NCBI GenBank assembly: GCA_017554485.1
Contig: JAFZIG010000041.1
Location: forward strand, 7,128-71,127
Direction of reading: 5' to 3'
Origin: Acidaminococcaceae bacterium
Lineage (GTDB): Bacteria > Bacillota > Negativicutes > Acidaminococcales > Acidaminococcaceae
Length of the DNA: 64,000 nt
In this document: positions 3,971-59,277 of the stretch, one piece after another
Layout: each line of letters starts with the position of its first letter
Position numbering within the stretch: the stretch's first letter is position 1
Made by a program: the position numbers and the translations under genes
The notes under the pieces: generated by a model
Database searches by the model: none
Told to the model about the DNA's origin: nothing
Seen by the model: the letters and a program-made list of their open reading frames with translations, nothing else

Positions 3971-4756
3971 CTACTTTTGGACAAGTCCGCCAAATCGTCG
4001 TTCCCGGTTCTGATAAGCTTTGATCGCTTCCACCAGCAAATCCGGTGTGAAATCAGGCCATAAAACCGGAGTTGTCCAAATTTCGGAATAAGCAATCTGC
4101 CATAACAAAAAGTTACTTATCCGTAGGTCCCCGCCGGTACGGATCAGAAGATCCGGAGCAGGCAGTCCTTTAGAATATAAATTATCTTCAAACACAGAGG
4201 CATTGATATCTTCAATATTTAACGCACCATCCGCTACTTGCCTGGCGATAGCTTTAACAGCATGAAGAATTTCCGCCTGTCCTCCGTAATTAATTGCCAG
4301 ATTCAAAATAATGCCAGTATTATACTTTGTTTCTTCTATGGCATGATCCATCCTCTCATTCACGATAGGAGGATTTTCGTCCCTCGATCCAGCAAAACGT
4401 ACCTGTACATTATTCTCTTTCATTTCCTGTAACTGAATGCTGAGGTTATGACTGATCAGTTTCATAAGAAACTGTACTTCCGGCAAAGGACGTCTCCAGT
4501 TTTCAGTAGAAAAAACATATGCCGTTAATACTTTGATTCCCAGACTGTCAGCTGCTTTTATAATCGTCTTTAAAGAATCTACACCCGCTTTATGGCCTAA
4601 GGTCCGCACGCCTCCCCGTGATTTTGCCCAACGACCGTTGCCATCCATAATAATCGCAATATGTTGCGGCATATTGGACAGATCCAGTCCGTCAGTGTTT
4701 ACTTTAACCTTGGCTGGTTTGGAACTGATAGTTTTTTGAATTAACGTTTTTAACAT
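3971..4756 (-). CDS. uppS: undecaprenyl diphosphate synthase (isoprenyl transferase)
   Basis: HIAIIMDGNGRWA, FSTENWRRP, DLLIRTGG..RISNFLLWQ motifs. Confidence 0.97.
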   Translation of the reverse strand: MLKTLIQKTISSKPAKVKVNTDGLDLSNMPQHIAIIMDGNGRWAKSRGGVRTLGHKAGVDSLKTIIKAADSLGIKVLTAYVFSTENWRRPLPEVQFLMKLISHNLSIQLQEMKENNVQVRFAGSRDENPPIVNERMDHAIEETKYNTGIILNLAINYGGQAEILHAVKAIARQVADGALNIEDINASVFEDNLYSKGLPAPDLLIRTGGDLRISNFLLWQIAYSEIWTTPVLWPDFTPDLLVEAIKAYQNRERRFGGLVQK

Positions 4757-4789
4757 AAAGACACGCCCTTTGGTAAAAGAAAAATGTAC

Positions 4790-4817
4790 CTCCCCCCCTG
4801 CCGAAACAGAAGGGGAG
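4790..4817 (-). terminator. GC-rich hairpin after the ferredoxin gene
   Basis: CTCCCC(C/T)(C/T)CTG...CAG stem; followed on the minus strand by GTACATTTTT. Confidence 0.5.
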
Positions 4818-4831
4818 TTTACGGCAAGAAA

Positions 4832-5008
4832 TTATTCCTGAGAAATCGCGCCTACCGGGCAGTTCGCCGCGCATGCGCCGCATTCTACACATTCGTCAGC
4901 GGTGATCTGGTATTTGCCTTCACCGTCTTCTTTCGGTGCGCCTACCGGGCAAGTGCTGGCACAAGTGCCACAGCCTACGCAAGCGTCAGTATCAATTTTA
5001 TAAGCCAT
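4832..5008 (-). CDS. 2[4Fe-4S] clostridial-type ferredoxin, 58 aa (below ORF-track cutoff)
   Basis: Manual translation MAYKIDTDACVGCGTCASTCPVGAPKEDGEGKYQITADECVECGACAANCPVGAISQE*; two CxxCxxCxxxCP motifs; AAGGAGG RBS upstream. Confidence 0.95.
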   Translation of the reverse strand: MAYKIDTDACVGCGTCASTCPVGAPKEDGEGKYQITADECVECGACAANCPVGAISQE

Positions 5009-5224
5009 GCTTGAGCACCTCCTTTCTCCTCTTCGTAATAGTACTCAATAGAATTTTATAGCCAGGCAGTTCCTGCTGCCCGACAACATATTCTTCCATA
5101 CGGCAATTATCTTTAATATCATGCCGATATCCGGAAGAAATACGTACTACCTGATAATCAAAGCCAATGACTGTAGTAATTCTCTTTACTCTTGCAAGCG
5201 GCAGGTCAACAAAAGACACAAAAC

Positions 5225-5788: not shown

Positions 5789-6534
<746 letters not shown>

Positions 6535-6594
6535 TTAACAGTCACTCAAAAACTAAATTCCAGATAGATGATACTTGCTGACATATTTCAAATC

Positions 6595-6623
6595 ATTATA
6601 CCACATCTTGCGTTAATCTACAA
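6595..6623 (-). promoter_or_regulatory. sigma-A promoter for pyrH
   Basis: TTGTAG-17nt-TATAAT with extended -10 TG. Confidence 0.6.
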
Positions 6624-6627
6624 AGAA

Positions 6628-6657
6628 AAAAGACTGCAAAATAATTTGCAGTCTTTT
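6628..6657 (-). terminator. intrinsic terminator after tsf
   Basis: 13-bp perfect stem AAAAGACTGCAAA/TTTGCAGTCTTTT, 4-nt loop, followed by a T tract. Confidence 0.8.
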
Positions 6658-6669
6658 ATGTCAGACATA

Positions 6670-7551
6670 TTATTTATTTACGAAAGCAGCAACTTCTTCC
6701 GCAAAGTTTTCTTTTTTCTTTTCAATGCCTTCACCCAACTGGAAACGTGCAAAACGGGCAACATCCGCATTTTTGGATTTCAACAGTTTGCTGATGGTCA
6801 GGTCGCCACCCCGGATATATTCCTGATCAACCAGACATACTTCTTTATAATATTTGTTGATACGACCCATAACCATCTTGGCAATGATGTTTTCCGGTTT
6901 GCCTTCGTTCCGGGCCTGCTCGGTCAGAATCTCTTTTTCATGCTCCAGTTCGGAAGCAGGAACTACGGAACGATCTAAGAACTGGGGATTAGCAGCGGCA
7001 ACCTGCATGGCAATATCTTTGCCCAATTCTACATCTCCGCCTTTCATATCTACGAGAACACCTATTTTTCCGCCTGCATGGATATAGCTGTAAACTTTGC
7101 CTTCTGCACTTTCATAACGGACAAAACGACGAACGGAAATGTTCTCACCGATTTTGGCAATGGCTTCGGTAACAACGTCTTTTACAGCTTTGCCACCCAG
7201 TTCAGAAACCAGCAGAGTGTCAACATCAGCCGGATTGGTTTTGGCAATATGTGCGGCAATGGATTTTGCCAATGCCTGGAAGTTTTCGTTCTTGCCTACA
7301 AAGTCAGTTTCGCAGTTAACCTCTACAATTACGCCTACTTTGCCGTCTTCAGTAACATGAGCCGCAACAGCACCTTCCGCGGCAACGCGGCCGGCTTTTT
7401 TCGCAGCCTGGGACAATCCTTTTTCGCGCAGGAAGTCGATTGCTTTCTCCATATCGCCTTCGGTAGCGACCAGTGCTTTTTTGCAGTCCATCATGCCAGC
7501 ACCGGTACGTTCGCGCAGTTCTTTAACAATTGCAGCTGTAATCTGTGCCAT
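6670..7551 (-). CDS. tsf: elongation factor Ts
   Basis: ELRERTGAGMMDCKKAL, VEVNCETDFV motifs. Confidence 0.98.
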   Translation of the reverse strand: MAQITAAIVKELRERTGAGMMDCKKALVATEGDMEKAIDFLREKGLSQAAKKAGRVAAEGAVAAHVTEDGKVGVIVEVNCETDFVGKNENFQALAKSIAAHIAKTNPADVDTLLVSELGGKAVKDVVTEAIAKIGENISVRRFVRYESAEGKVYSYIHAGGKIGVLVDMKGGDVELGKDIAMQVAAANPQFLDRSVVPASELEHEKEILTEQARNEGKPENIIAKMVMGRINKYYKEVCLVDQEYIRGGDLTISKLLKSKNADVARFARFQLGEGIEKKKENFAEEVAAFVNK

Positions 7552-14494: not shown

Positions 14495-16048
14495 TCACGA
14501 AAAAATCATGTTCATAAACGCGTCTTCACTCATGTAACGGGGATCAAAAGCTTCCAGCTGCAAAACATCCTGAATGATACCGGACCGTTCCGCAACACGC
14601 TTTGTGTCAATATGCACCTTTTCAGCATAGGGCGCCACGTCAAGCAGGTATGTTCTGGTAATCTTTATATAATTATCCAGGATTGCCAGAGTCCAGATCA
14701 TAATATCTTCGTCACTGAAACAGGCCACGGGACGGAGCGCATAAAAATCTCCCCATATCTGTGTCAGGTTTTTCCGGTCCTCCCAGGACATGTGAAGCAG
14801 TTTGCCAAAATGCAACAGGTACTGGTGTACCGGATCCTCTTTCCGGAGGGCAGCCGGTTTGTATTTCATGTCCTTTACAGCAGGATATACCGGTTTCAGC
14901 GACATGTCCGGCGCCCCTGCACAGGCGACCATATGCATCACCAATGCGGGATTAGCGTTAACGAACTGCTCCCAGTCCGCATCGGGATGAGCAACCCTGT
15001 AACAGGCAAGAAACGCCGAAAGCTGATTATAAAGAGTCTTCTGTGCTACAGAATCAACAATCACACTGCGCAGGTATTCGGTGATCAGATTGCCGTCCTC
15101 AAACACATGAGCTATGCACAGAATACCCCGGATATCAACGGTTTCATCAACCGGCAGGCTCAGCTCCGAAATACTGCCTGTAAAAAAGTCTTTACAGCTG
15201 AACCAGCCGTCGGCTTCCTCACGCTCAATTGTAAAGACCATCAACTGGATCTTCAGCATTGATTCCAGCAAATCGGTCAGGGCCTTATTGGCCTTTCCGT
15301 GACGGGGATTCGGATGTTCAGTATAATATTTATAGAAATGCTCTATCGGCCTTTCATTGGTATCCCGCAGACGGTAATCAAAAATAAAATATTCCCAAAA
15401 AGAAGCAAACAGCTCCGGTCTCTCCTGATTCCTTTCCGGTTCCGTTTCCGTTCCGAAATACGCATAACAGGCGCGGCGCCTGTCGAAGGAGAAACGGGGA
15501 TCATCAAAATACTTCTGCATCATGTCAAACAAGACGGAAAGTTTCTGTCCCAGCTGCATGAACACCTTTGTTTCCAGATCGGGTTCCCGGTTGGTCCGGT
15601 ATTTCTCATACTCTTCCGGAAGGGAACCGTCTTTTTGAAACAGCAGGAGTCTGCCGTCCGTCCCCAGCAGCTTAAGCCGGCACTTGGCTGCTGCCGTATC
15701 GTTGCTGATAGCCTTCTTCTGCTTTAAAAAAATGAGCAGCCGCTGGATTACGGAAAGGAAATAATCCACATTGTCATAATCCAGTTCGAAATCACCGATA
15801 TTCCGCTGACACCAGCTGATACAATAGACAAAATCCTCACCGGTCATGTCGCCAATTTTATAAGAAGTATTCCCACAATATATCAAAAGGTACATAACCT
15901 GCTGCCAGATTTCCAGCAGTTCGTCATCCGTGGCGCCCCGGAAAGCTTCCGTACGCAGGAACTGTTCTGCATACCTGCGCTCCAGGACAGTATTCCAGCC
16001 TTCGTCATCATTATATAATTCGTTAATTACATCGTAGATATTTGTCAT
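14495..16048 (-). CDS. hypothetical protein, 517 aa
   Basis: Long ORF; ATGA overlap with murB stop; no motif recognised. Confidence 0.8.
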   Translation of the reverse strand: MTNIYDVINELYNDDEGWNTVLERRYAEQFLRTEAFRGATDDELLEIWQQVMYLLIYCGNTSYKIGDMTGEDFVYCISWCQRNIGDFELDYDNVDYFLSVIQRLLIFLKQKKAISNDTAAAKCRLKLLGTDGRLLLFQKDGSLPEEYEKYRTNREPDLETKVFMQLGQKLSVLFDMMQKYFDDPRFSFDRRRACYAYFGTETEPERNQERPELFASFWEYFIFDYRLRDTNERPIEHFYKYYTEHPNPRHGKANKALTDLLESMLKIQLMVFTIEREEADGWFSCKDFFTGSISELSLPVDETVDIRGILCIAHVFEDGNLITEYLRSVIVDSVAQKTLYNQLSAFLACYRVAHPDADWEQFVNANPALVMHMVACAGAPDMSLKPVYPAVKDMKYKPAALRKEDPVHQYLLHFGKLLHMSWEDRKNLTQIWGDFYALRPVACFSDEDIMIWTLAILDNYIKITRTYLLDVAPYAEKVHIDTKRVAERSGIIQDVLQLEAFDPRYMSEDAFMNMIFS

Positions 16049-30213: not shown

Positions 30214-30813
30214 TCAGTATTGCGTCAGGTTGGAATAATCCAGCGTGTAAGACCGCCCCCAGTAATAAAAGCAGGTTATGGAAGCATTGCCTACATGCAG
30301 ATGCCAGGAACGGTTCAGATCCAGCCCCAGCATGGTACAAATCAGCACCCGGATAATCCCGCCATGGGCAACAAAGGCCACATCACCTTCCGGATACTGG
30401 TCCAGAATACGCTGTACCTCCGGATAAGCGCGCTGCTGTACCTCAGACATGCTTTCCCCCTCAGGAATCTTTGTTTTGGCAGGACTGGCAAAAAAATCCT
30501 TCCATTCTTTTGCGTACTTTTTCTGGATATTTTTACTGTTCATATTTTCCCAGATACCAAAGCTCATCTCCCGCAGCGCGTCCGTTGTCTGCGGTTCAAG
30601 GCCCTTTGCCCTTCCAATGATTTCTGCCGTGGTCCTGGCGCGTTGCAGGCTGCTGGTGTAAATTGCCTGCAGCGGCACGTCCTTCAGAAAGCGTGCAACT
30701 TTTTCAGCCTGTTCGATTCCTTTCTGATTCAGAGGAATATCCGTCTGGCCCTGAAAACGCAAGGCATTGTTGTAATCGGTTTCCCCGTGACGGATCAGAT
30801 AAAGCTTTGCCAT
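30214..30813 (-). CDS. cobC: alpha-ribazole phosphatase (histidine phosphatase; start revised to 30813)
   Basis: LIRHGET, FGIWE, PEGES, VAHGG; last gene of the cob cluster. Confidence 0.85.
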   Translation of the reverse strand: MAKLYLIRHGETDYNNALRFQGQTDIPLNQKGIEQAEKVARFLKDVPLQAIYTSSLQRARTTAEIIGRAKGLEPQTTDALREMSFGIWENMNSKNIQKKYAKEWKDFFASPAKTKIPEGESMSEVQQRAYPEVQRILDQYPEGDVAFVAHGGIIRVLICTMLGLDLNRSWHLHVGNASITCFYYWGRSYTLDYSNLTQY

Positions 30814-30885
30814 GATTCTCCTCCCTTTCGTTGCTCTGGACAGCAACGTTCTCCTTCCCAAATTATTTGTTCTGTCAGCTTGCCT

Positions 30886-31749
30886 TCAAACAGATTTTTT
30901 CTGTGTTTCCTGAACTTTTAAAGAATAATCTTCTTTTTCATTATGTACGCCGGCTTCTTCAAATGTCTCCATTTCAGCATAGGCCTTGATACCGGCATCG
31001 AACAGGTGCAGACAGGTCAGCGCCCCGATGCCTTCCGAACTGTTCCGCGAAAGGCGTAACGGCGCCTGCAACTGCAGCCTTTGCAATAACTCACTGCAGC
31101 CGGCTTCTGCCGATTCATCACCGGCAAAACAGTACTGTAACACAAACGGATTAAATTTGGCAGCAGCCAGGGCAGCCAGACAGGTAGCCACACCGTCCAG
31201 CATCACAGGCACGCGCATTCCCGCTGCCTGCAGGACAGCTCCTGTCATGGCAGATACAGACGGACACTGCAGCCTTTCCAAAAACAGCAACCCATTTTCT
31301 TCTTCCAGCATGTCCTTCCAGTCCTGTCTCAAATCATTTTCACAGGTCCCAAGGCAGATAAGCCCGGCTTTCTCTTCTCCGATATATTCCCCTGTCAGCA
31401 TAGCACCTTCTTCCAGCAGGTCATATGCCGATTCACCGATGACAAGCAACGGGATAACCATTGCATTGACATAAGCCGCATAGACAGAGATTGCTTTCTT
31501 TTTCAGCATAACAGCTTCAATCTCAGCCGCATGTTTCGCTTCCCCCCACAGCAACAGCAACCGTGTCTCCGGAATTACCACCAATTGCTTATCCGAAGAA
31601 CCGACGATCCCGGCATACCGCGTGGTCATGCTTTCCAACTGGGCAAGGGAACCTACCGGCTTGATCAGGTTGTCAAACCGTTTCTGTGCTGCTTCTAAAA
31701 TTTCTTTGCTTAATGGCTGGATTTTTGTTGCCAGTTCCTCAATATGCAT
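30886..31749 (-). CDS. degenerate CobT paralogue, ArsB-like
   Basis: N-terminal RFDNLIKPVGSLAQLE and C-terminal MLDG..AAL, EGIGA, METFEEA; lacks ADHG, GEMGIGNT and TGRG motifs. Confidence 0.7.
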   Translation of the reverse strand: MHIEELATKIQPLSKEILEAAQKRFDNLIKPVGSLAQLESMTTRYAGIVGSSDKQLVVIPETRLLLLWGEAKHAAEIEAVMLKKKAISVYAAYVNAMVIPLLVIGESAYDLLEEGAMLTGEYIGEEKAGLICLGTCENDLRQDWKDMLEEENGLLFLERLQCPSVSAMTGAVLQAAGMRVPVMLDGVATCLAALAAAKFNPFVLQYCFAGDESAEAGCSELLQRLQLQAPLRLSRNSSEGIGALTCLHLFDAGIKAYAEMETFEEAGVHNEKEDYSLKVQETQKKSV

Positions 31750-31761
31750 GATTCCTGTCCT

Positions 31762-32610
31762 TTACCTGAAATAATAATATGCCAAAAACAATAGGATTAC
31801 ACTACCGCATTCAGTTAAAAAACCGAAAGTGTCGCCTGTCAGTCCGCCCAGATTCCATTTAAGATAGAATGCCAGGACAATGCAGGGAACACAGCTGACA
31901 ATGGCCAGTTTGCACCAGTCAGGACCCAGGAAAAACAGCAGGATTGCCGCAAACAGCACAGCCAGTATCAGATAGGCCGGGCTGCCCCCGGTTTTAAACA
32001 TTTCACCCAGACCTCCGGGCCGGGCGTTAGGAAATGTCAGGATATATACAGCCATTAGTGTCCTGGTAACAATATACATGGAAGCCAGCAGCGGTCCCAG
32101 AACAGCAGGTTGGAACGATCCCAGCAAAGTCACCTTAGCCAGTATCAGGATGATCGCACCGATGACAGCATTGGCGCCCACATGACTGTCCTGCATGATT
32201 TCCAGTTTGCGTTCACGTGTCCGTCCGCTGAAGACGCCGTCCGCTGTATCCATGAAACCGTCATACATCAGGGTCCCAATAAAAAACAGTTCGGCCAGTA
32301 CTAAAAACACACCCATTACATTGCCGGAAAAACCTGCCAGCATACCAAACCGGGCAGCCCCCCACATCAGGGCCCCCATAATCGCACCTACCAGCGGGAA
32401 ATACGGTACGGAACGGGCAAAATCATCCGGGAACCAGACTTCCCGTTTTGTCATCCGTATCCTCGTTAAGAACTCCAGACAGGTAAAGAAATCCCTCAGG
32501 TAACGGAACGGGCCGGAAGAACGTTCCGGCAGCGTAATATTCAACCGGTTCCAGAAACCGGTTTCCACCTCAACTTCTGTTCCTTTGGTTTTCAAATTCT
32601 CATCTGCCAT
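31762..32610 (-). CDS. cobS: adenosylcobinamide-GDP ribazoletransferase (cobalamin synthase)
   Basis: FLTRI, YFPLVG, DGFMDTADG, GGLTGDTFG; multi-TM. Confidence 0.92.
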   Translation of the reverse strand: MADENLKTKGTEVEVETGFWNRLNITLPERSSGPFRYLRDFFTCLEFLTRIRMTKREVWFPDDFARSVPYFPLVGAIMGALMWGAARFGMLAGFSGNVMGVFLVLAELFFIGTLMYDGFMDTADGVFSGRTRERKLEIMQDSHVGANAVIGAIILILAKVTLLGSFQPAVLGPLLASMYIVTRTLMAVYILTFPNARPGGLGEMFKTGGSPAYLILAVLFAAILLFFLGPDWCKLAIVSCVPCIVLAFYLKWNLGGLTGDTFGFLTECGSVILLFLAYYYFR

Positions 32611-32691
32611 GCTGTACTCCTGGTAATGTTTAACGTAAAAATGTGCTGAAGAGAAACTAATCAGGTTTGAAGTTCATTCAGCCCAGAATGC

Positions 32692-33708
32692 TTACGCTCC
32701 TGTAAGTTCCCGATAGGTATCTAATGCAGAACGCAAAATACTGATCGCCAGGGAAGCGCCGGTACCTTCTCCCAGGCGCATGCCCGCATGGACGACAGGC
32801 TTCAGCTGCAGCACCTCCAGCATCTTGCTGGCACTTAAATCAGAAGATAGGTGGGAGCACAGCAAATACTTCGCGCAATTAGGATTGATTCCATAAGCAA
32901 TCAATGCGGCAGCCGTTGCGTTCACGCCGTCTATCATAGTGGGCACATGCCGCGCCGCACCGGCCAGTATCATGCCGGCCAGACCCGCGTGATCGTAACC
33001 GCCGACTTTGCATAACACGTCCATCCCGTCTCCGGGTTTAGGCTTATTCACTTCCAGGCCTTTACGCACAACTTCAGTCTTGATTTTCATCCGTGCATCG
33101 TTGATGCCGCTGCCCCGTCCTGTAGTCAGTTCCGCCGGCAGGTCCAAAAATCCCGCAGCAATGGCAGCGGTTGAAGTGGTATTGGCAATCCCCATCTCGC
33201 CAGTCTCCAGCAGATTGCAGCCGCCGTCTATCGCTTCATCAGCAATCCGCATACCTGTTTCCAGTGCCGCTACGGCCTGCTCATACGTCATGGCCGGTCC
33301 CTGGGTAAAATCATCGGTTCCCCAGGCAATCTTGCATTGCCGCACGTGGGAAAACGACTGCAGATCAAAGTTCGTTCCAACATCTACTACAACCATATCC
33401 GCACCGGCATGACGGGCCATTACGTTAGCGCCCGCGGTACCCCTGCCGTACCCGTTGATCATTTGTAACGTAACTTCCTGAGGAAAAGCGCTGACACCGT
33501 ATTTACAGATACCGTGATCTCCGCACATCAGCAACATCACCGGTCTCAAACCCCGGATGCCCCTTCCGTCCGTCATCATGAGATAATCCGCTGTCAACCC
33601 CGGCAAAATGCCGAAGTCTTCACCCAGCGCCAAGGCAGCTTCCCACTCTTTCAGCACTTCCTTACGAATATTATCATTTGGCACTGAAATATATAAATCT
33701 TCTAACAT
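32692..33708 (-). CDS. cobT: nicotinate-nucleotide:lower-ligand phosphoribosyltransferase CobT, ArsA-like
   Basis: GDHG, VSAFP, GPAMT, GEMGIANTT, TGRGSG, KVGG, MRLGEGTG (catalytic Glu present); lacks the N-terminal KPxGSLG motif. Confidence 0.85.
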   Translation of the reverse strand: MLEDLYISVPNDNIRKEVLKEWEAALALGEDFGILPGLTADYLMMTDGRGIRGLRPVMLLMCGDHGICKYGVSAFPQEVTLQMINGYGRGTAGANVMARHAGADMVVVDVGTNFDLQSFSHVRQCKIAWGTDDFTQGPAMTYEQAVAALETGMRIADEAIDGGCNLLETGEMGIANTTSTAAIAAGFLDLPAELTTGRGSGINDARMKIKTEVVRKGLEVNKPKPGDGMDVLCKVGGYDHAGLAGMILAGAARHVPTMIDGVNATAAALIAYGINPNCAKYLLCSHLSSDLSASKMLEVLQLKPVVHAGMRLGEGTGASLAISILRSALDTYRELTGA

Positions 33709-33777: not shown

Positions 33778-34350
33778 TTACGCAAAACGGAACGCTAACC
33801 GCTTGATATCCACAGCCTGCCCAGCCACCACATAAAAAACCTGATCGGCTGCTTCCCCGATCTGCTGGTTCACCCAGCCGGAAATATCCCTGTATTCCCG
33901 GGCCATAGCATTATCCGGCACAATTCCGTTACCCACCTCGTTGGATACAAAGACCACGGTCCTGCCGCAGGCTTTGGCTGCATCCAGCAGTGTGTGCATA
34001 CGTTCCCGTACCACAGCCGCTTTTTCAGCCGTGGTGCCCTGAGGCGCATCTTTACCATATAATATATTGGTCAGATAAAGGGTAATGTCATCAAATAAAA
34101 TAGCATCTGTTCGTTCCCCTGCTTCGGGAAAAACTTTTTCTGCCTGATACGGAGCTTCAAATGTGATCCATCTTTTTCCCCGGCGGGACTGATGCAGCTT
34201 CACACGTTCCGCCATTTCCTCATCCAATATTTCCGCCGTGGCAATATAACCGCAAAGGTTACCCGCATGCAGCACATACTTTTCCGCAAATTCACTTTTC
34301 CCGCTGCGGGCCCCGCCCAGCACCAATACAAGCCTGTTCTCTCCATCCAC
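33778..34350 (-). CDS. cobU: bifunctional adenosylcobinamide kinase / guanylyltransferase (start revised to GTG 34350)
   Basis: GGARSGKS P-loop, YIATA, LHQSRR, SNEVGNGIVP; GGAGG RBS at 34361-34365. Confidence 0.93.
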   Translation of the reverse strand: MDGENRLVLVLGGARSGKSEFAEKYVLHAGNLCGYIATAEILDEEMAERVKLHQSRRGKRWITFEAPYQAEKVFPEAGERTDAILFDDITLYLTNILYGKDAPQGTTAEKAAVVRERMHTLLDAAKACGRTVVFVSNEVGNGIVPDNAMAREYRDISGWVNQQIGEAADQVFYVVAGQAVDIKRLAFRFA

Positions 34351-34367
34351 TGCAGCATATCCTCCTG

Positions 34368-34595
34368 TCACTGGCGCAACGGCACATGCAGATAATAGTC
34401 AATGACCCAGACAAATTGGCCGTTGCTGCGTTTCACCCTGTGCCATTTCATGCCGTCAATTAACGCGGTATTCAACAGTTTGACCTGCTCATTCGGCTCA
34501 AAGGAACCGATGGCCGGATACTCTTTTCCCGCATGCTGCCTGAATTTTACATCCGTTCCTACAACATAAGCTTTTTTAATCTCCGGTTTCCACAT
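34368..34595 (-). CDS. small stand-alone bacterial SH3-domain protein
   Basis: VVGTDVKFRQHAGKEYPAIGSFEPNEQVKLL...WHRVK..NGQFVWV..YYL; GGGAG RBS. Confidence 0.75.
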   Translation of the reverse strand: MWKPEIKKAYVVGTDVKFRQHAGKEYPAIGSFEPNEQVKLLNTALIDGMKWHRVKRSNGQFVWVIDYYLHVPLRQ

Positions 34596-34785
34596 AAAAG
34601 AATCTCCCTGTAAAGAAACTATTTTTTAGAAAATATTTTGTAAACAGTTCATTCTGTCTAAGCATATATACATTTAATTCTGTCACAGGCAATCTCACAA
34701 AAAACGTTTGGCGATTCGTTTCTGATAAAAGATATCATCAAACAACTCAGTTAATTAACTTTAACTATTTTATTATACCATAGAA

Positions 34786-34816
34786 AATGCCCCCTGACTA
34801 TGTGTCAGGAGGCATT
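34786..34816 (-). terminator. terminator after pduO
   Basis: AATGCC(T/C)CCTGAC...GTCAGG(A/G)GGCATT stem followed by TTTT on the minus strand. Confidence 0.7.
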
Positions 34817-34895
34817 AATGATGAAATTCATGTAAAACACAGAGATATTCAGGTTATTGCAATGTTAAATGTACACGAATCAACAAGAATCAACT

Positions 34896-35426
34896 CTATT
34901 TCTTTTCTTCCACGCCAACTTCCGTTTCCACACGGGCCAGGATAAAGCACAGATCTGACAACCGGTTTACACAGATCAGCAGCTGCGGGTTCACCGGTTC
35001 CGCTGAATTCAGACGCAACAGCTGGCGTTCAGCGCGGCGGGTCGTGGTGCGGGCAATATCCAGGGCGCCTGCGCCGGGCGAATCCCCCGGAATAAGAAAA
35101 TGGCTTAAGGGCTGCAGCATCGAATCAAATTTATCGATAGTGCTTTCAAACAGTTTCACATGATCTTCCGTAATGTACGGCTTGGGCAGATTTAAACTTG
35201 CCACGTCAGCCATCATGGACAACAGCAGCTTCTGTACATTAAGAATAGCTTCTTTTACGTCGTCCCGTTTGACCAGCGACCGGGCCAGACCCAGCGCGGA
35301 ATCAACTTCATCCAGGTTGCCGTAGGCTTCTACACGGTCCGAGCACTTGGAAACACGTTCACCGGTATAAAGGCCGGTGGTTCCCTTATCGCCTGTACGG
35401 GTATACACTGCAGCTTTTTTCGACAT
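34896..35426 (-). CDS. pduO: ATP:cob(I)alamin adenosyltransferase, PduO type
   Basis: VYTRTGDKGTTGL, RVEAYGNLDE, ARTTTRRAER, NRLSDLCFILAR. Confidence 0.92.
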   Translation of the reverse strand: MSKKAAVYTRTGDKGTTGLYTGERVSKCSDRVEAYGNLDEVDSALGLARSLVKRDDVKEAILNVQKLLLSMMADVASLNLPKPYITEDHVKLFESTIDKFDSMLQPLSHFLIPGDSPGAGALDIARTTTRRAERQLLRLNSAEPVNPQLLICVNRLSDLCFILARVETEVGVEEKK

Positions 35427-51524: not shown

Positions 51525-53122
51525 GTGTCTGCTCAACAATTCACTTTTTTTGAAAAATAGCTATAGAAAACCCACTATCTATCTGCTCTTCAAAATTTTG
51601 GTTTTCTGTTCCTGCTCATCTGAAACTGCAGATTGGAACGAACCAAAAATATTGGTTACCAGCACTGAAAGGGCTATGGTTGTTAAGGATGTGTCCTTCC
51701 GTTTCCGGGAGATTAATCCCATACCGTTTCTGTGCTTGGCAACGCTGAAGTATCTTTCAATTTCGATACGGTCGCTTTTGTCTTTGGCGATCTCCCTGGC
51801 AATCTGCCGGTTTGTTTCTTCATTAGATGATGGCCTCCCAAGCTTCGGCCCGCTGATCCGTATTTCATTCTTTTTGCAAAAGCCGATGTTATCTTGTGTC
51901 CGGTAAATCTGGTCTATCAAAACACGTTTTGGATAACAATGGTTCCGGTACTTGTACGCTTCCAATGCATTTTGGAGCAAAGCTCCTTCATTGTATGCGT
52001 CAAAGGAAAGGTGTTCTATCCTTGCAAAGCCGCGCTCGTCAACACTGAGATGAAGTTTTGCCCCAAACTCGGTCTGTTTGCTGACCTTGCCTCGCACGAT
52101 GGGACGCACATAAGGCTGGCTGATGCTCACAATCCGATTTGCCACCTGGTGCACATCGTTTTCATACATGTATTTTTGTTGTGCATAGAGGACATGGATA
52201 GTAATGATGTTATTGGCAAATTTCTTGTCCGGGGCATAGCCATCCTGCATAAAAGCATCCAAATAATGCAGGTTTCGGCGGACATACCCGAGCTGTTTCC
52301 GGATAGCGTTTCGTATGCGCTCTTTAGACGGCTTCTTGGATTTTGCAAAAGCAAGGTATTCTTTATGAGCAACTTTTTGGTAGATTCGTGGCTTCACAAG
52401 AGCATACCGGCTGCAAAACCAGTCAAGCATTGCTTCCAGCTTCAACCGGGCTTCATTCAGCAGTGATGTGTCCTGCGGGAAACGGATATTCTGGGGCGCA
52501 ACAGTAGCGTCACAGATTTGCGTGGCAATTAACACACCGGATTTGGCAGAACCAAATCGTTTTTTGAGCCTGCGTGGCTTAGGCATGACATCGCAAAGCG
52601 CGTCGTTCGCTTTGATGACAAATTCTACTTCGATTCGCTTGCGCCATTCCACAAGCAGCGTCGGTACAAACGGCGGCACATGCTGGAATGTTTCCAGGCC
52701 GATGAAGTACTGGTAATAGGGGTTTTCCCGAATCTACTTGACAAGATCCCGGTCTGAGAACCCCATTCGCAGCTGGATGATCAATGAACCAAGAACCATC
52801 CTGCATGGCTTTGCTACGTTTCCGATACCGGAAGGGAACAATGCCGCATAAAGTGCTTCCCAGGCTTTCCATGGCAACTGGCTGGCTCTTTTGAACCATT
52901 CATTTTCACAATCCAGCTGCATTCCGCAGGAAGCGTTGAAGCGAATGAAACTTAACTGCTGGTACTCAAAGTCGGTAGGTTTGTACATGATTTTTGCTCC
53001 AAAGTGCAAGCTGCAAAGCCCATGAATACGTTTTTTCGGTAAAAAAACCTTGCACTTTTAGTATAGCAAAAACCTCTGTAACCCGCTTGGTTATGCTATT
53101 TGTTTAATTATTGAGCAGATAC
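51525..53122 (-). mobile_element. IS5-family insertion sequence, about 1.6 kb, flanked by TA
   Basis: Terminal inverted repeats GTGTCTGCTCAACAATT (left) vs GTATCTGCTCAATAATT (reverse complement of right); TA at 51523-4 and 53123-4. Confidence 0.88.
51579..52988 (-). pseudogene. IS5-family DDE transposase interrupted by an in-frame TAG at 52734-52736
   Basis: ORFs 52734..53009 and 51579..52679 are in the same frame: ...FSDRDLVK*IRENPYYQYFIG...; IATQICDAT, RPIVRGK..EFGAK, VLIDQIY, DRIEIERYF. Confidence 0.88.
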
Positions 53123-58103: not shown

Positions 58104-58344
58104 TATAATCCTCGCATCATCAACAATTTAATTAAATATCTTTATAATTATTTTAACCGATTTTGGTATTTTAGTAAATCGTCATAGATTTGACAAAAAT
58201 AATAAGTATACTGACTGCGAAAAGAAAAAAGTTTCATTATTTACGTTTAAAAATCTTTACGTTTATGAATTTCTTTTGGATAATATCTGTAAAACGCATC
58301 AGTTTACATTTTTTACTGAGTTAAAAAATACGGAGGTAACGCCT

Positions 58345-59277
58345 ATGAAAAACTGGAAAATGACGGCAGCAGGACTTCTCGCTGTTTCCTTTTTAACTGC
58401 AGGGCTTGCCTGCCCCCTCCCTGCCGGTGCGGCTGCAGTAAACCAGAAACAGTCCGCTACTACAGAGTATAAAGAAGGTTCGGTGATACCGGCTTCCAAA
58501 ACGGAAGCCATGCGGCTGGCTGCCAAAGAAAAAGCTTTATCAGAGTATTACATCACCAGCGGCAGCAAGCTGGAAAAAGCCATCTCCCGGCTGGAAAGCC
58601 TGGATCCTGGCAAAACCGGGCTGGATGCAGGAAAACACTATTTTTACCGTATGGACAAAGCACTGACCGGCAATTATTTTCAGCACGTGAAAGCCTTTAC
58701 CCGCAATTTGGAAACGCTGGTGGGCGAATACTTTATTGCCAAAGACAACAGCTGTGTGTTCCGCCGTTTCCCGGAAGACGGGAGCTTTGAAATGCTGGAT
58801 GGCACTACGGAAAAACTGCTGAAGAAGGTTGAAATCTACCGGGCCAGTGCAATTATTCCGTTGAAAGGCAAAGGCAAGGTCCTGGTACGGGTTCCCGGCA
58901 ACCTGCCCTATGACCTGACGCTGACCAGCCTTACGGAAAACATTGCCACCATCAATGAGGAAAACGGCCAGCTGACTATCTCCGGCAACGCACGGGGCTA
59001 TGCGGATGTGTTGGCGGAAGTTGAGATCGGCGGTTATGTAAAGACGGAAAAACTCCGGTTCGCTGTCATGGACGACAGGGACATCTCCAATTATGAAGCA
59101 CGTCAGTATTATCCGGTCTATGTGGGAATGGGCTGGGGCTGGGGCTGGGGCTGGGATGGCCCGCATCACCCGGGGCCGCCTCCCCCACGTCCCGGTGGCG
59201 GCGGACATGGTCCCCATCCCGGCGGCGGTGGCGGTCATGGCCCGAGGCCCGGCGGCGGTGGCGGTCCGCGGAGATAA
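58345..59277 (+). CDS. secreted hypothetical protein with GW and PGGGG repeat tail (start revised to 58345)
   Basis: GGAGG RBS, signal peptide ending in AGA, C-terminal GWGWGWGW..PPPP..(PGGGG-HG)n. Confidence 0.8.
   Translation: MKNWKMTAAGLLAVSFLTAGLACPLPAGAAAVNQKQSATTEYKEGSVIPASKTEAMRLAAKEKALSEYYITSGSKLEKAISRLESLDPGKTGLDAGKHYFYRMDKALTGNYFQHVKAFTRNLETLVGEYFIAKDNSCVFRRFPEDGSFEMLDGTTEKLLKKVEIYRASAIIPLKGKGKVLVRVPGNLPYDLTLTSLTENIATINEENGQLTISGNARGYADVLAEVEIGGYVKTEKLRFAVMDDRDISNYEARQYYPVYVGMGWGWGWGWDGPHHPGPPPPRPGGGGHGPHPGGGGGHGPRPGGGGGPRR
59131..59154 (+). repeat. (GGCTGG)4 perfect in-frame hexamer repeat
   Basis: Read directly; encodes GWGWGWGW. Confidence 0.9.

Follow-up and report, generated by a model that had tools for sequence, protein, structure and literature searches.

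The 64,000-nt stretch of DNA analysed here (hereafter the window) is a chromosomal segment of a rumen bacterium of the genus Succiniclasticum (Acidaminococcaceae, Negativicutes). Its cobamide nucleotide-loop operon encodes two paralogues of the phosphoribosyltransferase CobT, designated A and B, which are separated by the cobamide synthase gene cobS. We propose, with a probability of roughly 60%, that the two paralogues pair up as an ArsAB-type heterodimer, the active site of A being completed by the pseudoenzyme B, and that this enzyme probably gives rise to a phenolyl cobamide. The constituent claims differ in strength. A functional A:B heterodimer with A as the only catalytic subunit appears likely; a phenolic native base is favoured at lesser strength. 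Three parts of the proposal are inferred: that the heterodimer forms, that B completes the A site in trans, and that the substrate is phenolic. An ArsA/ArsB-like pair acting in lower-ligand attachment had been put forward in the initial annotation of this DNA, and this idea is supported by the position of A in the ArsA clade, the conservation of the degenerate B, the nucleotide-loop operon around them and the fact that A-B fusions occur in nature.

Partition of CobT motifs between the two paralogues

Both open reading frames (ORFs) lie on the minus strand where the initial annotation had placed them (Table 1). Both are maximal, so that no hidden N-terminal extension accounts for the motifs they lack. 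A had been described as keeping the catalytic machinery without the KPxGSLG motif, and this holds: GDHG, GEMGIANTT (33175-33201), TGRGSG and LGEGTGA (with E314 at 32767-32769) are all present, and GEDFGILPGL (33595-33624) stands at the place of KPxGSLGxLE of canonical CobT. The C-terminus of A stops at ...YRELTGA, and the MxTFxEAGV tail is absent. The description of B as a paralogue about 50 amino acids (aa) shorter, with its end motifs kept and its phosphate-binding motifs lost, is likewise accurate. B is 51 aa shorter than A and retains KPVGSL (31645-31662), EMETFEEAGV (30946-30975) and the core fold. Three deletions are seen in B relative to A and to the ArsA and ArsB of Sporomusa ovata: one of ~17 aa, which covers ADHG and the base-binding loop, one of ~30 aa around the GPAMT loop, and one of ~38 aa, which corresponds to the NTT...TGRG phosphate-binding region and leaves B devoid of GExGxxNTT and TGRG. 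Neither chain has the composition of a canonical single-chain CobT, with both end motifs missing from A and all catalytic motifs missing from B.

A census of the family reveals the same division elsewhere. Canonical CobT proteins carry the N-terminal motif in 79%, the C-terminal tail in 75% and the catalytic Glu in 98% of cases. The A clade (n=111) has the N-terminal motif in 26% and the catalytic motifs in ~100% of its members; the C-terminal tail is found in 0 of 111, the 348-residue chain of S. ovata ArsA having been aligned to residue 336, with its last 12 residues outside the tail check. Among the B proteins (n=218) the N-terminal motif is present in 100%, the C-terminal tail in 98-100% and the catalytic motifs in 0%. 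The complementary split is therefore a trait of the ArsAB lineage. The initial annotation was right in that the two paralogues divide between them the parts of one CobT subunit, but the pattern is not peculiar to the Succiniclasticum locus. The sole feature of the partition specific to Succiniclasticum is the full decay of the N-terminal motif of A; the Phascolarctobacterium-type A retains KPAGSLGKLE.

Within Succiniclasticum, A and B are under reciprocal constraint. Residues 1-40 of A are its least conserved part (0.62-0.69 against a mean of 0.87), and the conservation of B is highest at residues 21-40 (0.94), 181-200 (0.90) and 261-280 (0.91). The focus on the end motifs is also apparent at greater distances: in 11 B homologues with 28-47% mutual identity, the invariant residues are concentrated in LIKPxGSLxKLE and AG..Y.EM.TF....V, the remainder being a few core glycines and alanines.

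Affinity of subunit A to ArsA

A matches the Pfam family DBI_PRT from end to end (E 1e-102). Its best match among solved structures is S. ovata ArsA (4hdk_A, 251 bits), against at most 181 bits for the CobT structures, and the two ArsA-like proteins share 44% identity. In a neighbour-joining tree with a backdrop of 48 canonical CobT representatives, A, the A partners of related loci and S. ovata ArsA form one clade with 98% bootstrap support, which rises to 100% once the N-terminal halves of the natural fusions are included. The phylogeny against ArsA, ArsB and CobT that had been suggested as a check on the initial annotation thus places A with ArsA and not with canonical CobT.

The base pocket of A conforms to the same affinity. 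F75, M83 and M172 of A align to S80, Q88 and L175 of Salmonella CobT, positions occupied in ArsA by Y, M and M; A has the ArsA-type pattern with a conservative Y-to-F change. PDB entries titled 'CobT S80Y/Q88M/L175M complexed with p-cresol' carry the ArsA-type substitutions. The catalytic residues E171 and E314 of A correspond to E174 and E317 of Salmonella CobT (PMC9561151). The ratio of non-synonymous to synonymous substitution rates (dN/dS) of A is 0.03-0.07 in most comparisons and reaches 0.12 against the most distant locus. Judged by its sequence, A is an orthologue of the characterised ArsA. The position of the known specificity residues in A, where they are ArsA-like, leaves unsupported the further idea that the erosion of B or the insertion of cobS has altered the lower-ligand specificity.

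The degenerate paralogue B

The similarity of B to DBI_PRT is confined to two stretches at its ends, and B falls under both NCBIfam cut-offs, scoring 112.8 bits with TIGR03160, for which 319.3 bits are required. It still has a Glu at the column of the catalytic base (SSEGIGA, 31021-31041), but this residue is unconserved in homologues: DSRGNGA, DSSGVGA and NGIGIGA are found among the deeper branches of Succiniclasticum and in genera outside it. The AlphaFold model of the B monomer (mean predicted local distance difference test, pLDDT, 89.7; predicted template-modelling score, pTM, 0.87) has the CobT/ArsB fold, with template-modelling (TM) scores of 0.79-0.80. When 1.84 billion cluster representatives were searched, B proved to belong to an extensive class of degenerate paralogues of CobT. 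Of the 150 best-ranked representatives, about 50 have the N-terminal motif but none of the three catalytic motifs, and many of these are 255-300 aa long.

The dN/dS of B against the 18 Succiniclasticum loci is 0.07-0.10, similar to that of cobS, cobU and cobC. By this measure B is a maintained gene under purifying selection. That it might be a decaying pseudogene was rejected on the strength of the dN/dS of ~0.07, the intact ORF at every locus, the confident fold and the transcript coverage.

Two variants were observed among the relatives of B. The Succiniclasticum-like B homologue P0108 (370 aa) ends in an extension of ~80 aa that contains CGCGCHDHEDCGCGDHHHDDCGCGDEDCDCEDGDEE; with its many Cys, His, Asp and Glu residues, this extension looks like a metal-binding tail. 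P0261 (349 aa) and its relatives P0266, P0323, P0287 and P0296 represent another class of degenerate CobT paralogues, of full length, in which GMGCLGAGAEFS replaces GEMGxxNTT and SASCGSG replaces LGEGxGA; this class occupies a separate branch within the B-like group. The names attached by NCBI to the distant relatives are 'Acidaminococcaceae', 'Phascolarctobacterium', 'Selenomonadales' and 'Sporomusaceae'.

Natural fusions of A and B

About 10 cluster representatives are single-chain A-B fusions of 597-736 aa (P0269, P0273, P0274, P0286, P0288, P0298, P0300, P0301, P0330 and P0333). Their N-terminal halves resemble ArsA, with 46-69% identity to the S. ovata protein, and contain all catalytic motifs. 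Their C-terminal halves are B-like, with KPxGSL and the C-terminal tail and no catalytic motif, and several of them are short (~250-290 aa). The two halves are connected by a variable linker of 15-40 aa. The possibility that the fusions are gene-calling artefacts of overlapping genes was rejected, since they occur on many contigs and possess the linkers; one cluster has 1533 members, and P0298 comes from a metagenome-assembled genome (MAG) of Sporomusaceae.

Fusion of two genes elsewhere is a classic sign that their products act together, and the fused proteins accordingly constitute Rosetta-stone evidence for a functional link between the A and B domains. The AlphaFold model of the P0286 fusion (616 aa) has a pLDDT of 90 and a pTM of 0.92, the latter implying a confident placement of the two modules relative to each other; its N-terminal half superimposes on ArsA chains with TM scores of 0.95-0.96. 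The B-type end motifs are modelled in P0286 with pLDDT values of 86-96, and the matching regions of the window B monomer with 68 and 49-73. As different proteins are being compared, the apparent gain of order in the fusion is only suggestive. No description of the fusions was met in the literature searched, so that they appear to be new; they would offer convenient single-polypeptide versions for study.

Gene order, distribution and expression

The nearest relatives of the window locus are found in Succiniclasticum isolates and MAGs from the rumen and gut, including S. ruminis DSM 9236, and the window DNA is also present in gut metagenome runs. The position of cobS between the two paralogues, pointed out in the initial annotation, is a stable property of this group: the order cobU-A-cobS-B-cobC was found in 18 of the 18 Succiniclasticum loci recovered, which argues against a chance arrangement. 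The order extends to other Acidaminococcaceae: five further full loci (L019, L021, L022, L025 and L026) have it, and a partial one (L020) has cobS-B-cobC. Of these, L019, L021, L022, L025 and the partial L020 are more distant, with B 31-50% identical to that of the window, and one of them is located on a 2.16-Mb contig. The A protein of L026 bears an NCBI Phascolarctobacterium MAG name.

The B of L026 is only 261 aa long (5887-6672), and its A (4001-5011) has an intact KPAGSLGKLE, from which it follows that the erosion of B and that of the N-terminal motif of A are not strictly coupled. L024 displays the classical tandem, in which a 271-aa B adjoins a 346-aa A; the C-terminal tail of this B resembles that of S. 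ovata ArsB.

The operon is wholly covered by contigs of two bovine gut metatranscriptomes that are 85-95% identical to the window, although expression is poorly gauged by contig depth and such data may include carried-over DNA. One of the contigs spans the end of cobS, the whole of B and the start of cobC.

Proposed enzyme and alternative explanations

In the proposed enzyme, A would bring the entire catalytic large domain, that is, the base pocket, the phosphate loop for nicotinate mononucleotide (NaMN) and the Glu171/Glu314 pair. B would be a pseudoenzyme, its own active-site segments being gone and the CobT core needed for a tight dimer being retained; the CobT of Salmonella forms a tight dimer whose interface is large (PMC9561151). 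The N-terminal KPxGSLxxLE and the C-terminal MxTFxEAGV of B would make up a small domain capping the large domain of A, and the heterodimer would possess one composite active site. The small-domain motifs of A itself would face the dead site of B and would for this reason be free to decay; in Succiniclasticum the decay is seen. Cheong et al. 1999 and Newmister et al. 2012 are said to have described the N- and C-terminal small domain of CobT as closing over the active site of the partner, and in ArsAB only the ArsA site is reportedly active.

The alpha-ribotide so formed would be joined to adenosylcobinamide-GDP by CobS, and the product dephosphorylated by CobC. The likeliest base would be p-cresol or phenol, yielding a base-off phenolyl cobamide fit for a His-on methylmalonyl-CoA mutase. 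Succiniclasticum ferments succinate to propionate, and is dependent on this mutase. Methylmalonyl-CoA mutase binds phenolyl cobamides well, and Veillonella parvula has them as its native type of cofactor (PMC6759758). A phenolic substrate is suggested by the membership of A in the ArsA clade, by the ArsA-type residues of its pocket and by the restriction of phenolyl cobamides to Negativicutes, the only group from which they have been reported (PMC6461909).

Several observations weigh against the proposal. With respect to the partner, the orthology of B to S. ovata ArsB is weakly supported. The best solved-structure match of B is ArsB (4hdk_B), at 68.9 bits against 65.7 bits to a CobT, a marginal difference; the neighbour-joining tree gathers all degenerate paralogues, S. 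ovata ArsB included, on one side with a bootstrap of 83-89%, to which long-branch attraction may contribute. A comparison of folds was tried as a means of placing B with ArsB rather than CobT and proved uninformative, as all CobT-family chains gave TM scores of 0.74-0.80. Support for the pairing of A with B is indirect, coming from the natural fusions, the fusion model and the reciprocal conservation of motifs. A search of the open literature found no paper that states that the small domain of CobT acts in trans. The remaining adverse points concern the identity of the base and the self-sufficiency of A, and are best considered with the explanations they favour.

The best surviving alternative, unlikely in our estimation, retains the ArsAB-type heterodimer and supplies it with benzimidazoles or purines scavenged in the rumen, from which a conventional cobamide would be made. 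S. ovata ArsAB also activates 5,6-dimethylbenzimidazole (DMB), as witnessed by the PDB entry 4hdr ('ArsAB in complex with 5,6-dimethylbenzimidazole'). The DMB-activating BluB/CobT2 of Propionibacterium has F and M at the S80 and Q88 positions (PMC4657239), so the residues at these positions are not diagnostic of phenolic specificity, and A differs from S. ovata ArsA precisely in having F in place of Y at position 75. Set against this is the firm position of A within the ArsA clade, the only characterised members of which are phenolic-base enzymes, together with the confinement of reported phenolyl cobamides to Negativicutes (PMC6461909) and their share of 20-34% of bovine rumen corrinoids, for which few producers are known (PMC8123684).

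Less probable still is that A is a self-sufficient homodimeric enzyme of the CobT type, and B a slowly decaying relic or a protein with an unrelated role. A possesses every catalytic motif and clears the NCBIfam CobT equivalog TIGR03160 (329.5 bits, cut-off 319.3), and could be active alone; the A and B genes are not adjacent, and B keeps just 130 bits of DBI_PRT signal. The selective constraint on B (dN/dS ~0.07) and its retention at the same operon position from 85% to ~30% identity are hard to reconcile with decay. A self-sufficient A would also leave unexplained why the conservation of B is focused on exactly the two end motifs absent from A, why natural A-B fusions keep the same partition, and why no A-clade protein has the C-terminal tail kept by 75% of canonical CobTs. 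That B is instead, or in addition, a non-catalytic adaptor docking the phosphoribosyltransferase or the ribotide at the membrane synthase CobS is highly improbable: B is always immediately downstream of cobS in the split arrangement, but the tandem and fused forms join it to A and not to CobS, its conserved motifs are the canonical CobT ends, and a contact with CobS is without direct evidence.

Relation to known systems and significance

The proposed A:B heterodimer is closest to S. ovata ArsAB (PDB 4HDK, 4HDM, 4HDN, 4HDR and 4HDS). Both pairs consist of two CobT paralogues from Negativicutes, with a catalytic A that has Y or F, M and M at the S80, Q88 and L175 positions and no C-terminal tail, and a B that is without ADHG and the NTT phosphate loop; S. 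ovata ArsB keeps KPxxSL and MKTFGEAEV. The two systems differ in that S. ovata ArsB is of full length (346-350 aa) and retains the Glu of LGEGTGA, whereas the Succiniclasticum B has 287 aa and three active-site deletions. The Succiniclasticum A additionally lacks the GSLGRLE core of the N-terminal motif, and cobS lies between the genes. The S. ovata arsA and arsB genes reportedly adjoin each other with an 8-bp overlap (Chan & Escalante-Semerena 2011). Salmonella enterica CobT has the same fold and chemistry as A, but forms a symmetric homodimer: there are two active sites, and each chain bears both the catalytic and the end motifs. The natural fusions display the same motif partition as the window pair, with the modules linked in one polypeptide and encoded outside cob operons.

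The arsAB pairs compiled by Shelton et al. 2019 from Veillonella, Dialister, Pelosinus, Sporomusa and others belong to the same bacterial class and have the same inferred function. They were recognised as cobT genes whose gene IDs are sequential and which encode 300-800 aa each, and the accepted pairs have 340-401 aa per subunit (PMC6461909). The Succiniclasticum locus falls outside this rule on both counts, owing to the intervening cobS and the 287-aa B, and neither Succiniclasticum nor Phascolarctobacterium is present in the tandem-cobT table of that study (PMC6461909). In the literature searched, no link was found between Acidaminococcaceae and phenolyl cobamides. ArsAB itself is already known; the minimal B of 260-290 aa, the cobS-split operon and the natural fusions look undescribed, given their absence from the census rule and table and from the searched literature.

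A broader and more tentative suggestion, which we consider possible but less assured than the enzyme itself, is that Acidaminococcaceae living by the decarboxylation of succinate to propionate, with Succiniclasticum, a core rumen genus, and Phascolarctobacterium of the human colon as candidates, may be major unrecognised producers of phenolyl cobamides in the gut, by means of a fully subfunctionalised ArsAB with a trans-acting 'lid' pseudoenzyme of 260-290 aa. The tandem, cobS-split and fused forms would then be arrangements of one heterodimeric enzyme. Phenolyl cobamides account for 20-34% of the corrinoids of the bovine rumen and 16% of those of human faeces, and S. ovata and V. parvula are the only known producers named in a review (PMC8123684); counting Pelosinus fermentans, three species have been established experimentally, and 27 are predicted (PMC6461909, PMC8123684). 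If the suggestion is true, producers among Acidaminococcaceae would help account for the phenolyl corrinoids in both environments. Whether a cobamide is usable by a given microbe or host depends on the identity of its lower ligand, and an ArsAB-like function of the pair would make abundant succinate-utilisers of the gut candidate sources of cobamides unusable as vitamin B12 by ruminants and humans.

The rule of adjacent cobT genes encoding at least 300 aa is blind to an arrangement that is conserved across Succiniclasticum and Phascolarctobacterium-like genomes. Should the pair be ArsAB-like, prediction pipelines would need to look for an ArsA-clade protein and a degenerate B at any spacing or length. 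The split, tandem and fused forms also provide a clean natural case of the transition from a homodimer with shared active sites to a catalytic subunit accompanied by a pseudoenzyme. The availability of S. ruminis DSM 9236 in culture makes the prediction directly testable.

Operon layout and neighbouring features

On the minus strand, the genes follow one another in the order pduO-type gene, 75-aa ORF, cobU, A, cobS, B and cobC (Table 1), and the operon is flanked by housekeeping genes. The intergenic gaps from cobU to cobC measure 12-81 nt, the one between cobS and B being 12 nt. The 81-nt spacer between A and cobS (32611-32691) is missing from the metatranscriptome contigs of related strains, which skip 81-85 nt at this place; it appears to be a strain-variable insertion or deletion.

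Table 1. Positions of the operon genes and their neighbours in the window, and of two fusion genes in other loci
Feature	Record	Position	Strand	Matches and remarks
PduO-type ATP:cob(I)alamin adenosyltransferase	Window	34896-35426	-	TIGR00636 161 bits, cut-off 108; directly upstream; synteny kept
75-aa ORF	Window	34368-34595	-	No Pfam match; 4-nt overlap with cobU start; membership in the system uncertain
cobU, bifunctional adenosylcobinamide kinase / cobinamide-phosphate guanylyltransferase	Window	33778-34371	-	Pfam CobU 189 bits; NCBIfam NF004469 182.7 bits, cut-off 161; first gene of operon; position identical in all related loci
A, ArsA-like, catalytically complete NaMN:base phosphoribosyltransferase, 338 aa	Window	32692-33708	-	DBI_PRT (PF02277) 344 bits
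cobS, cobamide (5'-phosphate) synthase	Window	31762-32610	-	Pfam CobS 149 bits; membrane protein, between the two CobT paralogues
B, minimal ArsB-like pseudo-CobT, 287 aa	Window	30886-31749	-	DBI_PRT (PF02277) 130 bits in two stretches
cobC, alpha-ribazole phosphate phosphatase	Window	30214-30861	-	NCBIfam TIGR03162 179.2 bits, cut-off 162.9; Pfam His_Phos_1; last gene of operon
A-B fusion gene	L027	5001-7031		Called as single gene, outside cob operons
A-B fusion gene	L028	5001-6794		Called as single gene, outside cob operons

The sequence of the 75-aa ORF begins MWKPEIKKAYVVGTDVKFRQHAGKEYPAIG. The ORF is present with 69-95% identity in L001, L009, L011 and L016, and is truncated or degraded in L004, L005 and L007.

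Nucleotide-loop operons of Firmicutes often bear a riboswitch. No cobalamin riboswitch was detected at the Rfam gathering thresholds in the whole window, or at E<=1 within 34300-35000; the candidates before cobU were weak chance matches overlapping the pduO terminator, and were rejected. A GC hairpin followed by a U-run, which resembles a terminator and was found inside one weak Rfam alignment, is located at ~34780-34812, 3' of the pduO-type gene. Because of this hairpin the pduO-type gene probably forms a separate transcript.

Elsewhere in the window, two sizeable ORFs at 14495-16048 (517 aa) and 58276-59277 (333 aa) are without a Pfam match, and a gene for a DDE-type transposase (PF13586) occupies 51579-52679 on the minus strand amid housekeeping genes.

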